DNA of 64,000 nt, from the NCBI GenBank assembly GCA_951406725.2, contig OX597816.1:81530001-81594000 (forward strand). The letters are read 5' to 3'. Each line of letters begins with the position of its first letter. The first letter of the stretch is position 1. The translations under genes and the position numbers were made by a program. Shown one piece after another: positions 2,469 through 55,414 of this stretch. The DNA comes from Octopus vulgaris (taxonomy: Eukaryota). The notes under the pieces were generated by a model, which was given only the letters and a program-made list of their open reading frames with translations, searched no databases and was not told the origin of the DNA.

Positions 2469-3376
2469 TTAATCTAGTTATCTTCAAAATTTGGATAAGT
2501 AATACATCTAATCAATAAAGGATATAGATTTACAGTTTTATTTTGAAACTGGTCAGATCCAGACTCTCACACCTACTCTACAATGTCATTCTAAAAATAA
2601 ACAATCACATCATCAAAATCTCAAGGTTATGAGAAAATACATGATTAATTTTTAAAGGGTCAATTTGTCTGGCCAAAGAAAATGAAAAATAAATAGCCCA
2701 AATTCAAAACTTCAGTATTGAAATTGTCCATATCCAGCCAATATAAATATTTCTATTTCTTCAAACATGCCACCATACCTCACCTTATTGTCAGCTTACT
2801 TACAGGACAAAGATACCAACCCACCATCACCATCTACTTCAAATCTTACAGAAAGCCATGTATTTTCTTTTCTTATTTCATCATTCATATATAAACAGAA
2901 CAATGCACAGAAAGAAAAGTCACCTTTTCTATCAGTAAACTATTGGTATTATGAATGCTAAAATGGATCAATAACATTGTTGTCAATAGTAATTAATTCC
3001 TGTAGCAATGATAGTAATCTAAAGATAAGCCCTTGCTGAGTCATACCTACAACTTGATTTCAATTGCTACTTTCATTTCATTCCACTAGCATACCCAATA
3101 TTTTTGAAAAAAATGTAAATGAAATACAATCTCATTTCAACCCATTATAGAGATGAAGAAATACTATTTTTACAACTGGTATAAACTTCCTAATATATCA
3201 ATTAAACAGTGATAGAGCAACCATGGTATCTATCTTTCACAGAGGTAGCATGAGGACAATTAGGCAATGTGAATGCTTAACTATTAAGTCTGTGGAATAC
3301 CACTCTGAGTGCACAGCTTTCAAACCACATGTAGAAAATGTAATGAATAATGAATTATAAAGAAAAATTTACTTAC

Positions 3377-3869
3377 TTTTGTTATCCGTGAAATCTCGGT
3401 CATTAATAGTGGTAACATCCAGATCACTGCAAGAACTGTCTGTCCTCAGCAAACCACTGGACATTTCATGACTAGCTAAATGGTCAATGCCTATAATGGC
3501 ATGAGCAGGAGATGGTGAGGATGTGTGATGAGCAGCAGTAAACAATGTGGCAGTTGTCGAGGGTACTTGATTATGACTGACCTCCACTAAGTGGGACTGA
3601 ATAGAGTTGCTTTGCTGATGAGGAGCCAGTGGGTCTTGGTGGCAGTCAGCATGTTTATCATCTTCATCTTCATTGGCCAGGCCAACTCGATAATCAGCAA
3701 AAGCTGGTGGCATGATTACTGATGAGTAACTAATCAATTCTGTAGTGTCTGCTCTGTTGACACGCTCTTTTGAGCTCAGCTGAGTTTTCTCAACAGTGAA
3801 CAGAGATGGCAAGTAACCCACACTGTGTCTAACATCAGTCACTTCTCTCTTTCTACATGTTGCCATCAT
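3377..3869 (-). CDS. First coding exon portion of an unidentified minus-strand gene (exon 3377-3925; MMATCRKREV...DRDFTDNK, phase-1 donor)
   Basis: Only long non-repeat ORF; acceptor ttttctctacAG at 3927-3926, donor GTAAGT at 3376-3371; S/H/D-rich, disordered-looking N-terminus; downstream exons not found in window. Confidence 0.75.
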
Positions 3870-3884
3870 ACACTCGAACAATCA

Positions 3885-28026: not shown

Positions 28027-28168
28027 ATGGATCAAACAGTTTGATTCAAATTTCTTTAGTACTTCACGTTTCAAACATGATACTAGTTCTAATTCCAATG
28101 GCTGAAGACTAGCATCATGCTTGAAACTTGAAGTACTAAAGGAATTTGAATCAAACTGTTTGATCCAT
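28027..28168. repeat. Long inverted repeat, 61-bp arms with 4 mismatches, 20-nt loop (MITE-like hairpin)
   Basis: Arms 28027-28087 and 28108-28168 are reverse complements. Confidence 0.85.
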
Positions 28169-28169
28169 A

Positions 28170-28450
28170 CATCATCATCATCATCGAAATATAATGTCCA
28201 TCTTCCATGTTGGCATGAGTTGAACAGCTTCACAGAAGCTTGCCCAGTAGAAGACTGCACCAGACTTTTGTGTCTGTTTTGACAAGGTTTTTACAACTGG
28301 ATACCCTTCCGAACTCCAACCACCCTACAGAGTGCTTTTAACATGGTACCAGCACAGGTGAGGTCAGTTTTGGCATGGTTTTCTTTTTTTTTACAGCTGG
28401 ATGCCAACCACTTTACAATGTGGACTTGATGCTTTTTACATGGCACAAAC
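28170..28450 (-). mobile_element. RTE 3' terminal fragment
   Basis: (CAT)n then reverse complement of the RTE tail, with partial internal duplication. Confidence 0.65.
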
Positions 28451-38372: not shown

Positions 38373-38502
38373 GCAAAAAGCAACATGCATCTAATATACA
38401 TGTGAAAAACTGAAGTCAAAATATCATAAATACAAAGGCAAAAAGCAACATGCATCTAATATACATGTGAAAAACTGAAGTCAAAATATCATAAATACAA
38501 AG
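38373..38502. repeat. Perfect 65-bp tandem duplication
   Basis: 38373-38437 identical to 38438-38502, GCA microhomology at junction. Confidence 0.9.
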
Positions 38503-40006
38503 GCAGTGCACCTCATATATGAGATGTACACCTAGTATAAGAGGTGCACACCTTATATATAAACAGAAGATGAAGCAGAAAAATGTCAATCCTCTTGCAT
38601 GTAATTTCAGCAAGATGGCACAAAAAGCTTAAAAAAGTAAATATGATATGGTAGGATAGAATAAATACTTGGAGATCTGGATTCAAAGTAGATGGAAATG
38701 GCACCATTACATTGAGAAGCTTTTATTTAAAATGTTTGTCATAACATCTTGGGAATTTCTTTGTGAAAACTGGCTATTAGTGCAAAAAATATATATAATC
38801 AAAAAAGAAAAAGCTTACAGAACCATTGGCGTTTTCTTTATTGTAATCATAGCTGAGTCAAAGCAAAAGAAATAGAAGAGATTTAAAGGTAGATGAATTT
38901 GGCAAGTAGGCTAAGAAAACATTAGGTTATGTGAAGGAAAAAAAGTTATTCTACTTGTAACTACAAATAACATCAAATGAACTTCTTAGAAAAACTGAGA
39001 ACATTGGAATTAAGACTTGAACAGTAAAATGTAAAAGCTACTATCCTTTATTTTACAGGAATTCTGCACAAAGCTCTCCCTGACTTTCATTAAGGATCTA
39101 TAGAATGCAAGAACTGAATAATACTTAATTATTCTCTTTGTGATCACACACTGTATTGTGCATTGTTCTTAAATGTGTTTTTATATCAAAGTTGTCTCAG
39201 GTTCATAGATTTAAAATCAGAACTGAATGTAACAAGATAATGATATGAGTAAAACATGCTTTGGCAATCTCTATAATTTGCCACCATTTTCCAAATACTT
39301 GTCTGTTCCACCCCTATTTTCAGACTGCACCAATTTCCTCAAAATGTAATAATAAATTAAATTAATAAAAAAAAACTTTACCTTTTTACAATTCTCTGCA
39401 TTCTTGTGACTGTAGAATAGGGTCTTCAAACTAAAGTATTTGGACTCATGGATTATTTTTGCTATTACCTTAAACCTGTGAGGAAGCCTCTATATGTCTG
39501 TTGTATCTGCTGGAAATAGCAGCCAAATTACCTTCAAATCAAAACCGTTTCATCTTAAATAAAGAAGGATACTCTGGAAAAAGTACTTTCTGATATATAA
39601 AAAGTATGGAATGGTTAAGTCTGGAACACCTCTGAACATACGTCTGCTTGATTAAGACTGACCTGTGCAAAACAGTAGCAAAACTGATTGTATCTAAAAT
39701 TAACAAAATCATGTGGCTTAAAACACTAACTCTTGATGGTAGTCTTAGAACATTATTAAATAACAATAAACTTTCTTTTAAAGCAGATTCTATCGGATAA
39801 AACAGGAAACAGTGTAGAAAAGTTAGTATTTTCCAAATGTGGAATTAATAATACCCTGTGGATTTACTGATAGCGCTTAGAGACATGACATGAGAACTAA
39901 TATTAAATTTATAGACTTTGATAATATTAACAAAAAAATTTTAACTCATAAAAGCTTCCCAAAAAGATTAACAACAAAGTGGTACTATACAATACATGTA
40001 TGTATA

Positions 40007-43549: not shown

Positions 43550-44483
43550 ATATGTGTAATGCCGGTACTCACACTCGGCAGAGTGTAAGTACCTTGAGAG
43601 AAAAGCTGGACCTAAGAAGCATCAGTTGTGGTGTGCAAGAGAGACGTTTGCGCTGGTATGGTCATGTGGCGAGAATGGATGAAGATAGTTGTGTGAAAAA
43701 GTGCCACACCCTAGCGGTTGAGGGAACCTGTGGAAGAGGTAGACCCAGGAAAACCTGGGACGAGGTGGTGAAGCACGACCTTCGAACTTTAGGTCTCACT
43801 GAGGAAATGACTAGAGACCGAGACCTCTGGAAGTGTGCTGTGCGCGAGAAGACCCGGCAGGACAAGTGAGTCCATAACCCATGGCCTTCTACATGGGATG
43901 GAGCCGGCCTACGTATGCATACCTTCCCTTCTTGGGACACAAAACTCTACTTGTGAAGACGTGTTGAGGCAAGTGAGGATCAGAATCGAAATCGATCAAT
44001 GGAAATTGCGGATGTGCTACCAGTGCCGGTGGCATGTCAAAACTCTGCTTGTGAAGACCCGTTGAGGCAAGTGAGAATCAGAATCGAAATCGATCAATGG
44101 AAATCGATCAATGGAAATTGCAGATGTGTTACCAGTGCCGGTGGCATGTAAGAGAACTTTCCGTTTCGTGACCGTTGCCAGCACCGCCCCGTTTCGTGTC
44201 CGTTGCCAGCCTCGCCTGGCCCTCGTGCCGGTGGCACATAAAAAGCACCATCCGTTCGTGGCCGTTTGCCAGCTCTGTCTGGCACCAGTGCGGGTGGCAC
44301 GTAAAAAGCACCCACTACACTCATGGAGTGGCTGGCGTTAGGAAGGGCATCCAGCCGTAGAAACACTGCCAGATTTGACTGGGCCTGATGAAGCCTTCTG
44401 GCTTCACAGACCCCAGTAGAACCGTCCAACCCATGCTAGCATGGAAAACGGACGCTAAACGATGATGATGATGATGATGATGA
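43550..44483 (+). mobile_element. Young 5'-truncated RTE-clade LINE (intact ORF C-terminus to 43869, long repetitive 3' UTR, (GAT)n tail)
   Basis: ERRLRWYGHVARM...GRGRPRKTW...DRDLW are RTE C-terminal motifs; CpGs retained. Confidence 0.9.
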
Positions 44484-46419
44484 TAAGTGACAGTCTATCA
44501 AGGTAGGATATCTCTGATAATGCGATAATTGGTGAATGATTGTTTGGAGTAAATAGTTATATATTAACCCATTCAATTTTCCAGTGTTTCAGCAAATATT
44601 TGTTGTAATGGTAACATTTGGTGAAACTTTTCATCAAACATCTTGATAATCTGCACATTTATTGAGCCTCTTATCAACTGTACACAATACCCAAGTTTTC
44701 ATGTCATTTCTATATGGTCGACATCTTTAAAGGTACATGGGTGTCATTGGTTCAATTCCTGGGTCAGGTAGTATGTGTGCCCTTGAGCAAGGCACATCAT
44801 TCCAAGTGTCTACTAAACTGAATTAAATATTGGTTGGGTGCTGTTGTAGCCCTCTCTCCCTCCAACTGTTACATCCTAGATGTCCCACTGAGTCACAAAT
44901 GAGAGGGCTAAGAGGATATCTATATCTAGTCACGACTACATAGCCACATAAAACAATAAGCAAAATCATCATTATACATACTGCCAAGTGATAAGGCAAA
45001 AATAATAAGAAATATTCAAAGGATTTTCCTCTAGATGTTGAATACAGTCAGCCCCAACAGGATTTGATTTCATAACAAACAGGACAAAACTGTAAAACAT
45101 TTATCCATAGTCCTCCCAACTAAATGTCAAATTAAATGCATTGTTGTTTAACTTCATTTATCTGTATAGTTTGCATTCAAATCTTGTCAGGATAATTCAG
45201 GAATTGCATTTATCCAAAATTAAGAAAATAAGTGAAGGTAATTCAGATAATTATAGCCTATCCTCTTCAAAGGTTGACCTTGTGCTAAATGAAAAAGAGA
45301 TCCCTATTATAGAGGCAATGATAAAATGAAGATTTCAAGTGAGAACTAAATATCGCAATAAAAAAGGCAGTGAAGTGCTTGACTAAAATAACTTCCAATG
45401 TTTTGTTACAGTCTTTAACAAACTCAATATAAATTCTACAGATTTAATTTAACTTTTCATTTCTATGAAACTAATAAAAGTACCAGTAATATTCCTGGCC
45501 ATGTCTATTGGATGTATCTTTCCATTACAAATTTTTTGGTCCTTTACCAAATTATGAAATTGTTATGTTTATAATAGGGAGAATAGATTGGAACAAATAG
45601 TGTCTAAGCACATTATAGAATATAGTGTAGCTAAGTTCACATCACACTGTTGCTGATAAATGGATGATAATTTGTCATTCATTCCTTCAAGACTTATTTG
45701 TTATTTTAGCCTCAAGTAACCCTTTACTGAGCAGATCTATGATGAAAGCCATTCCACCCATGAACACTGTTTTTTTTTTCTAATATAGTGTATTTAGGTC
45801 TGCAATTCCTTCTTTAAGACTATACAGTGTGATTTGAGGGAGATTTGGCCACTATTTCCAGTTGGTCAACAGACTGTGTGGAGGTGCCCTCATTGACTTC
45901 TAGAAAGAAGCACCAATAATATGACAGAATCATTTCAATTAGCTACAATTTGATGACAGGAAAAGTATCTAGCTGTAGGAAATCTGCCTCAACAAATTCC
46001 ATTCGACCCATGCAAGCATGGAAAAGTGGATTACGATGATGATATTTCAGTGTTCACCCAGGATGATTTGAGTAGTTCCAATTAGTGAATCCACAGCATC
46101 ACAAGAACAGAGGACATCATGCTCAGTGACCACTAACAATTAAGCAGGCCCCCGATGAAAATGTTTTAGCCATGACCACATTGTTTTCTTTTCAGACACA
46201 GTATATCTAGGATTACATTATCCAATGTGTTTTGCCTTGTTTGATGCAGTAAGGACATCACATAGCAGTCCCAATATTTGTTGTTTATTTAGCCCCAGGT
46301 CAATCCCAATTAAGTACACCTCTGATCAAAAAGTTATCCAGCCATGCAGCACCATCATTTTAGAGTTATGTAGGACTATGTTATCTTGTCCTTGTATGAA
46401 GGGTACAGATCCCCTTTGA

Positions 46420-47829: not shown

Positions 47830-49030
47830 TATATATATTATATTATATATATGTACACACATGTTGTTCTAATGCAGGCAGTAATGTTGTTCATGGTGGT
47901 GGTGGTGGTGGTGGTGGTGGTGGTGGTAGGAAGAGAGATAGTGCAGAAATTTCTGGAAACTACTAGAAGAGTGATTTATATAGTCCTTTATTGATTACCT
48001 GGGTGATAGGTTGTACTTGGTTCAGGGTGTTGTGTTGTTATGGTGATGCAGCAGAGTACATGGACATTTTTTGTGTGCTTGTGTATGTGTGTGTGTATGT
48101 GTATGTGTGTGTGCCTGTTTGTATGTGTGCATGCATGCGTGTGCATATATGTGTATGAGCGAGTCATCATCATCATCATCATTGTTTAGCGTCCGATGAT
48201 GATGATGATGACTCGCTCATACACATATATGCACACGCATGCATGCACACATACAAACAGGCACGTGTATGTAAATGTTTGTGCATGCGCGTGTGTGTGT
48301 GTGTGAATATGTGTATATATGTGTACATGTGTGTGTGAGTATGTGCATGTGTGTATGTGTGTGTGCATGCATGCGTGTGCATATATGTGTATGAGCGAGT
48401 GTGTATGTAAATGTTTATGCATGTGTGTGTGTGTGAATATGTGTATATATATGTGTGCATGTGTGTGTGTGAGTATGTGCATGTGTGTATGTGTGTGTGT
48501 GTGTGTGTTTGAATGAGTATTTGTCTGTATGTGCATATATGTATGAGAGGGAGTGAGTGTATGTGTGTGAGAGTATGTGTGTATGCATGTGTGTGTGAGA
48601 GAATGTGAGAGAGTATGTGTGTTGTGAGTGTATGTGTATGTGTGTGTGTGTGAACATGTTGGAATCTGTCATTTAAGTGTCAGTGCTGCTATAGAAATAT
48701 AGTAGAGTACATAGATACTCGTAGCTGTGTGGGGGTGGTGTAGGATAGTGATGGGGGCGAAGTGGGGGACGTCATCAGGGTTATTGTATTGTCATGATAA
48801 TACAGTAGGGTAGATGGGCACTTGTGACAAGCTTTATGTTGCTGTAGTGGGGTATGTAGGTCAGCAATTGAGTATTGTCATGGTTAATATGACAGGATTG
48901 TATGGACACCTGTGACTGGAAATTGTATGTGTATGTGTATTTGGATGTGTGTGTATGTGTGAGTGTGTCTATGTATAGGATAATGTAATGAGGTGTGTGT
49001 GTGTGTGTGTGTGTGCGTGTGTGTGTGTGT
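47130..49030. repeat. Large CA/TG/TA low-complexity region with higher-order TG minisatellite units (about 48080-48660)
   Basis: Direct read; gtgcatgcatgcgtgtgcatatatgtgtatgagcgagt recurs at about 48127 and 48363. Confidence 0.85.
48111..48264. repeat. Perfect 70-bp inverted repeat with a 14-nt loop derived from the RTE 3' end
   Basis: 48111-48180 is the exact reverse complement of 48195-48264. Confidence 0.95.
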
Positions 49031-54209: not shown

Positions 54210-55414
54210 CACTATGTGATCAAAAGTATCCAGACACCCCACAAAACATGTTTATCATAGAAGGTGACACAGTAGATTACAGAGGGCATCACAGTATTTC
54301 CATTTATCATACAGAACACATGGTCAGCAATCTCAGTAGTCAGCAGACAGTGCTAGACAACAGAATGGGATGCTCTGCAGAACTAACAGACTTTTGACAT
54401 GGTTAGAAGGTCAGGTGCCACTTGTCTAATAAGCCTGTGCACAAGATTTCTACCCTTCTGAACATCCCTAGGTTCATTGTTTCTGATGTAATAGTGAAGT
54501 GGAAAGATGAAGAGCTGACCTCCCATGTTAAGACAGCTAAGTGTTGAAGAGGGTTGTACAACATAATCGTCTATCACCTCTCACCACTATCACACAGGAA
54601 TTCCAAATTGCATCAGGATCTACTCCAAGCACCATGATTGTTCAGCACAAGGTGTGCAAAGTTGGTTTCCATGGAAGAACAGCTGCCAATAAGCCACATA
54701 TCACACAGACAAATGCCCAATGCCACCTTGTAAGAGCATTGAAACTGGACTATAGAACAGTGGAAAACCATTGTGTAGAGTGAGGAATCACAATGTGGCA
54801 ATCCAATAGTAGTGTGTGGGTGTGGTGAATGCCCGGTGAACGATATGCACAAACCTGTATGGTGCTGACTGTGAAATTTGGCGATGGTGGGGTCGTGTTT
54901 CTCCTAGTAAGGGCTTAGTCCCCTTGTTACTTTATATGGCACTGTCACAGCGCAAGCTTACAGTGACATTTTAACCACTCTCATGTTGCCTACCGTCGAA
55001 GACCAGTTCAGGTATGACCTTTGTGTTTTCCAACATGACCAAGTACCCATCCATTCTGCAAGGGTTGTAGGGGAGTGGTTTGACTACAACAGTGTCCCAC
55101 TAATGGACTGGCCTGTGCTGAGTCTTGATTTAAATCCCATTGAACAACTCTGAGATGTTTTGAAATGCTGACTTCATGCTAGACCACACTAACCCACACC
55201 AATACCTTCGCTCATTTCAGTGCTCCATGAAGAATGGGCTGCCATTCCCCAGGAAACTTTCTGCCGCCTAATTGAAAGTATGCCTGTGAGAGTGGAGGCT
55301 GTCATCAAAGCTAAGACTGGGCCAACACCATATTGGCTGCCAGTGTTCCTGATGGAGGATAGTCCAAATTTGTACTTCATTATCAGGTGTCTGGATACTT
55401 TTGATCACATAGTG
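54210..55414 (+). mobile_element. Tc1-family DNA transposon, both ends intact, transposase pseudogenised
   Basis: Perfect 29-bp TIRs cactatgtgatcaaaagtatccagacacc (54210-54238, 55386-55414), TA duplication; FQHDQVPIH...WPVLSLDLNPIEQL DD34E-type motifs with stops and frameshifts. Confidence 0.92.

Follow-up and report, generated by a model that had tools for sequence, protein, structure and literature searches.

At positions 48111-48264 of the window, by which we mean the whole 64-kb stretch of DNA analyzed here, two 70-nt arms (48111-48180 and 48195-48264) are exact reverse complements of one another and enclose a 14-nt loop, ATTGTTTAGCGTCC, bearing out the perfect 70-bp fold-back claimed in a preliminary description of this DNA. 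No perfect inverted repeat in the window exceeds these arms in length when spacers of up to 300 nt are considered; the second-longest perfect inverted match, at 41 nt, lies between the hairpin's own right arm and a neighboring repeat unit.

The left arm opens with host flank, a GT-rich repeat unit (48111-48164, plus strand) that holds GTGCCTGTTTG, served as the template of the inverted copy and would represent the primer side. Beside it lies a 100-nt insertion (48165-48264) made up of (CAT)6, a T, GTTTAGCGTCCG, the reversed tail minus one unit and a reversed copy of the flank. Within this insertion, 48165-48182 is a LINE 3′ tail, (GAT)6 on the minus strand, the same tail being present at 44461-44484, and 48183-48195 (minus strand) comprises the last 12–13 nt of the LINE 3′ UTR in its young AGCG variant, with a C>T change at 48183 and a G at 48195 that is compatible with both the cDNA and the inverted copy. 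The tail then reappears on the plus strand as an inverted copy, one unit shorter (48195-48211), followed by 53 nt of inverted host flank with zero mismatches (48212-48264, plus strand). At 48265-48330 (plus strand) the host repeat resumes at the point where the left flank had stopped, with neither a TSD nor a deletion.

An older, neighboring repeat unit (48357-48466, plus strand) shows the empty site: by alignment, the 44 nt preceding the insertion and the DNA following 48264 match this unit with no gap or duplication, in agreement with the earlier claim that the arms contain host minisatellite that resumes after the right arm, and it is from this unit alone, in one genome, that the empty site at the locus is deduced. 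Because the inverted copy carries GTGCCTGTTTG, which is absent from the neighboring unit, the left flank was its template.

As the preliminary description had it, the loop together with (CAT)6 corresponds, in reverse complement, to the LINE 3′ end at 44450-44467 apart from a single base, a T at 48183 where C is predicted. This difference is a C>T at a CpG and is likely later decay; G>A changes matching it are found in the right arms of two other loci, L069 and L098. The stretch of element sequence past the tail is short, as described, but measures 12–13 nt instead of the claimed 14. Microhomology at the turn amounts to 1 nt, rising to 2 nt should the T at 48183 have arisen secondarily.

The parent LINE family

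The element sequence in the hairpin comes from a young LINE family, a 5′-truncated ordinary copy of which lies at 43552-44484 (plus strand) and served as the 3′-end reference. The family yielded 150 scored matches at 99–100% identity, 8 of them within 1059-aa open frames. The copy at locus L139 has a single 1059-aa ORF with RVT_1 and Exo_endo_phos domains and no RNase H family (Pfam), and its Atlas matches are RT-endonuclease clusters without names. In this ORF (L139, 1245-4424) a PHD-like finger follows the RT domain (Pfam E = 6 × 10−4, below the cut-off), a feature common to about half of the nearest Atlas clusters. The (GAT)n tail is found at 44461-44484, L139 and L140. Short tandem-repeat 3′ tails are described as a feature of the RTE clade (PMC6007223), and a LINE combining an AP endonuclease, an RT and a (GAT)n tail would, judged by these sequence features, fit that clade. 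RTE-2_OV, an octopus RTE-clade LINE, likewise has one long ORF with endonuclease and RT and was recently active; its ORF is described as 1109 aa, compared with 1059 aa here, and the available text of that report does not mention fold-back insertions for octopus RTE-clade LINEs (PMC9115989).

The 3′-end pattern of the parent LINE has 32,585 genome matches, 16,472 of them on the forward strand, which probably cover several subfamilies and non-autonomous partners. Among 30 ordinary loci and 6 distinct young matches whose 5′ end was recovered, few of them informative, no clear TSD of 7–15 bp was seen outside (AT)n. The suggestion that the inverted duplication arose instead of a TSD is not supported: ordinary copies for which both ends were recovered, few in number, have no clear TSD either. 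Elsewhere in the window, at 1042-1133, a LINE 3′ end with (GAT)9 runs into (AT)n and then into 4.5 copies of the telomere-like repeat GTTAGG.

Recurrence of fold-back centers and inverted flanks

The exact center of the hairpin has 35 genome-wide occurrences, whereas a reversed-pattern control has 0. Centers with a gap of 1–30 nt gave 138 forward-strand matches; the 412 reverse-strand matches for the same gap count tail registers repeatedly, and forward counts were used. Shorter centers gave 56 forward matches, counted by pattern, and gaps of 31–90 nt merely 37 rows. Doubling the forward counts, we extrapolate to ~400 fold-back loci, or ~1% of the parent LINE's matching 3′ ends, a lower bound because the patterns are exact, yet one in which not every center is a snap-back. 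The preliminary description had named as one refutation a lack of other RTE-centered palindromes genome-wide; hundreds of such centers were found. Their arms are locus-specific and the center alone is common to them, and a MITE or DNA-transposon palindrome is ruled out on these grounds. Two fold-back centers lie 147 bp apart at L020/L021, and at L011 the center itself was partly recopied in reverse.

We examined 80 loci, comprising all 35 exact centers and all other listed matches with a 1–30 nt gap from contigs 1–3, for inverted copies of their own flanks. The inverted-flank score exceeded all 28 cross-pair controls in 37 of them (median 77.5 versus 4). Loci with complex, non-microsatellite flanks accounted for most of this signal (28/40 above the null and 12/40 not), compared with 9/40 of those with microsatellite flanks, which are self-complementary and hard to judge, the other 31/40 being indistinguishable from the null. 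Across the 37 loci the copied flank spans 15–232 nt (median 84); arms are perfect in 9 and carry mismatches or gaps in 28, with pooled substitutions of 1.9%. An inverted BLAST match was present in 8 of the 43 remaining loci, and in L001, L002 and L109 the copy is displaced by 336–522 nt; at L109 another LINE, a later insertion, sits between the arm and the displaced copy. Amongst longer-center loci, 9/24 beat the null (7 of the 24 are shared with the tail-keeping set from symmetric patterns described below). A TSD after the inverted copy was sought in all 37 loci, yielding just microsatellite or 4–5 nt matches. Following the right arm of L071, and less closely of L085, is a second element 3′ end, tail-first, which suggests re-priming.

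Could the hairpin be a library or assembly fold-back chimera? Short reads were compared over 47900-48274 in 4 of 24 runs. Among the contigs listed none spans the whole hairpin, and X1, the sole run shown with both junctions, may be the sample from which the assembly was made; among the pieces listed there is no junction piece from X2, X4 or X8, which is not evidence of absence. Against an artifact, X1 short-read contigs carry 48145-48191 (depth 18.7) and 48235-48274 (depth 22) with no differences, at depths resembling the 17.9 of the unique flank, and contigs matching the fold-back center with 1–3 differences occur in 4/4 runs under 3 organism labels. Arms elsewhere have also aged, as seen in the 28/37 loci with mismatches or gaps and the later insertion in the L109 arm. 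We regard a chimera as the most improbable of the explanations considered.

Another explanation invokes two primings, one from each end of the break, joined head to head, with the arms being chance microsatellite matches. Three loci do have this appearance: at L029, L142 and L182 two 3′ ends meet head to head with no inverted flank, and L182 combines two sequence variants, as expected from two separate priming events. The 31/40 simple-flank loci that resemble the null also suit this account. It cannot yield the 53-nt exact, flank-specific inverted copy at 48111-48264, however, nor the 28/40 complex-flank cases. Two primings are thus refuted for the hairpin by its exact flank copy, have very little probability as its origin, and suit a minority: L029, L142 and L182 constitute a separate minority class, and not all centers are snap-backs. 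L1-type twin priming was likewise ruled out, the inverted segment being tail plus host flank and not internal element sequence.

The turn and the timing of the event

To characterize the turn, we used the 52 loci of contigs 1–3, excluding 12 with unexplained bases and retaining 40 clean junctions. Microhomology of at least 1 nt was present in 36/40 clean junctions, compared with 45–48% of simulated blunt turns (P about 2 × 10−8), with lengths of 1 nt (n = 23), 2 nt (n = 9), 3 nt (n = 3) and 4 nt (n = 1); microhomology of at least 2 nt characterized 13/40, compared with 14–17% in simulation. The element sequence past the tail measured 12–16 nt in 37/52 loci, the lower bound being set by the search pattern, and stop positions spread from about 4 to 32 nt of element. 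A sharp stall at the element's 3′ stem-loop was rejected, since the stem is weak (z = −1.74, equaled by 11/200 shuffles) and stops are dispersed. At L141, L144, L145 and L154, 4 of 14 head-to-head loci, the turn uses one shared junction, which lies within the stem-loop native to the element's 3′ end. We also rejected slippage as signaled by a longer right tail (22 versus 19, P = 0.76).

We then considered whether the fold-back arose during insertion or afterwards. In the latter case, an ordinary longer copy would have inserted first, and a later double-strand break near its 3′ end would have been repaired by fold-back and end joining that deleted the rest. Such events have precedent, since fold-back inverted duplications arise at yeast breaks without any retrotransposon (10.1101/2024.03.07.583931), and other hairpins do exist in this genome, with 8 in 202 kb of unselected DNA. 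Of these 8, however, 3 touch the parent LINE's tail and 2 are one palindromic repeat. The copies at L040 (1177-1450) and L136 (2794-3081) are apparently a single MITE-like palindromic repeat with arms of 128–139 nt.

A later break predicts both polarities, whereas symmetric patterns recovered 14 tail-keeping centers and 2 tail-less ones (P = 0.004); clear inverted flanks of at least 85 nt were seen in 5/14 of the tail-keeping centers, a count to which no null was applied. An opposite-polarity search, anchored on a tail-less sequence with 47,374 copies, gave 7 matches, namely 5 tail-to-tail pairs and 2 tail-less palindromes with unlike arms. In the tail-to-tail pairs (L155, L156, L158, L159 and L160), the tail of one copy directly adjoins the truncated 3′ region of another in the opposite orientation.

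A later break should also leave 5′ remainders of the element after the arm, whereas none that is young was found in 37 loci; the nearest case, at L091, is an older, 72%-identical copy lying 29 nt off. Nor does it give any reason for exact resumption at the target site. The host repeat resumes within a few bases at 48111-48264, L104 and L108, with offsets of +47 at L061 and −64 at L097, few of the 37 loci being informative in this respect. Lastly, comparable rates would be expected in other LINE families. In a control family with a (CTAA)n tail, which we take to be CR1-like from its translated end, we observed 0 fold-back centers among 2,618 3′ ends against about 22 expected (Fisher P = 2 × 10−9), a comparison that involves a single control family and a pattern slightly more stringent than that for the parent LINE (12 tail letters against 10); a second family with an (AAT)n tail was dropped for want of a clean tail motif.

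Given this polarity, the lack of 5′ remainders, the resumption and the family specificity, an event tied to the element's insertion is favored over general break repair, and we consider a later break unlikely. On the basis of polarity, absent 5′ remainders and blunt resumption, we favor a snap-back that would have formed during insertion, before 5′ joining.

Proposed mechanism, precedents and host context

The hairpin is best read, with a probability we put at roughly 0.78, as the product of aborted target-primed reverse transcription whose cDNA end folded over and used its own strand as the template for further synthesis. This was the core of the preliminary description (an abortive insertion, a snap-back and an inverted copy of tail and flank), and it now draws on recurrence, inverted flanks, microhomology, polarity and family specificity. 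We infer five steps, all from end products. The LINE endonuclease would cut the target, and the flank end would prime on the (GAU)n tail; synthesis would halt after about 4–30 nt of element; the cDNA end would pair by 1–4 nt, either with the tail or with the bases of cDNA made first, leaving a loop of about 7–23 nt; a polymerase would copy the tail and 15–230 nt of exposed or displaced flank; and the new end would come free and be joined, in most cases bluntly, to the opposite side of the break.

Most of these turns have 1 nt of microhomology, less than host polymerase theta usually employs. For the copying step we place the element's own RT slightly ahead of a host repair polymerase because of the family specificity, the mostly 1-nt microhomology and the second 3′ end at the end of the L071 copy. 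A host enzyme is conceivable because polymerase delta and end joining generate the same product in the yeast pathway, and family specificity could instead stem from the manner in which the endonuclease cuts. More tentatively, and at somewhat less than even odds, this LINE's RT may have a built-in second outcome in which ~1/100 insertions abort, self-prime on the cDNA and copy host DNA backwards, making the family a specific hairpin factory. If so, there would be hundreds to thousands of hairpins per genome that could feed RNA editing or small-RNA pathways, and their junctions would preserve, as a natural fossil record, the first steps of target-primed reverse transcription, which normally escape view.

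Several known systems resemble the proposed event. In R2 snap-back junctions obtained by PRINT (PMC11371274, PMC11331408), the cDNA 3′ end likewise primes on the cDNA or nearby target before the 5′ junction is made, and here too a cDNA end continues into the reverse complement of the cDNA itself or of target DNA close by. The R2 junctions were, however, produced by engineered proteins in cultured human cells as a low-frequency class and, for one protein, mostly after full-length cDNA, whereas the octopus loci are natural inherited insertions of an APE-type LINE with an early turn (about 4–30 nt), after which copying proceeds past the tail and on into host flank. L1-induced inverted duplications and fold-backs include two inverted-duplication examples, from somatic or cancer clones, that lie at the reciprocal end (10.1101/2024.12.14.628481), whereas in the octopus loci, which number in the hundreds and are fixed, it is the primer end that folds, duplicating the tail. 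In L1 templated insertions the growing cDNA likewise switches to nearby DNA, with templates of <250 bp within 15 bp of the site; these number 22 within a set of 3,598, a frequency of similar order, and are tumor insertions, some of which may be inverted like the octopus loci (10.1101/2024.08.27.596794). Yeast break fold-backs similarly combine microhomology-directed fold-back synthesis at one end with end-joining capture at the other, and short microhomology marks the turn here as well (36/40, 1–4 nt); they involve no retrotransposon and mostly span 5–34 bp, compared with our median of 84 nt (10.1101/2024.03.07.583931). A literature search, with subscription journals largely outside its reach and supplements excluded, returned no report of a heritable, family-specific, genome-wide snap-back class. 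Snap-back and fold-back events are therefore known in themselves; the number, inheritance and family specificity of those described here are what is distinctive, and notable.

How the 5′ end of non-LTR insertions is completed, and which steps belong to the element and which to the host, has yet to be settled, and the answer matters for R2-based gene insertion too. Hundreds of inherited junctions provide a natural data set of stop positions, microhomology, loop sizes and copied lengths. They also point to a LINE route to perfect hairpins of host DNA that leaves as little as 12 nt of the element itself, likely too little for repeat annotation to detect.

The predicted RNA fold of the hairpin has a free energy of −138.9 kcal/mol (z = −20), and a perfect 70-bp stem would, if transcribed, be a good double-stranded RNA substrate; were some of these hairpins transcribed, they would give a lineage with heavy A-to-I editing a ready supply of double-stranded RNA. 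One might accordingly suppose that the hairpin is a selected RNA structure, an editing or small-RNA substrate kept for host function. The preliminary description had seen in it a likely ADAR or Dicer substrate and had placed it in an intron, a placement we could not confirm, as no host exon was identified among 140 of the 538 window frames of at least 45 aa scanned against Pfam (none above the curated cut-off, the best being transposase fragments) or in a 170-aa frame at 3372-3881, which had no Atlas match. The perfect arms are explained without selection by young age, since older loci decay. Selection for host function therefore seems highly doubtful to us, and a neutral scar is the simplest reading of the hairpin.

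Other duplications and mobile-element traces were observed in the window and beyond. The window contains a perfect 65-bp tandem duplication (38373-38505) and a Tc3-type transposase HTH fragment (54541-54780). A second hairpin at 28027-28186, with 61-nt arms, few mismatches and a 20-nt loop, is directly followed by (CAT)5CG, which looks like the parent LINE tail alone, possibly reflecting a fold-back first and an abortive priming second. At L036 (1523-1698), a 60-nt inverted flank duplication immediately adjoins the tail of an ordinary copy.
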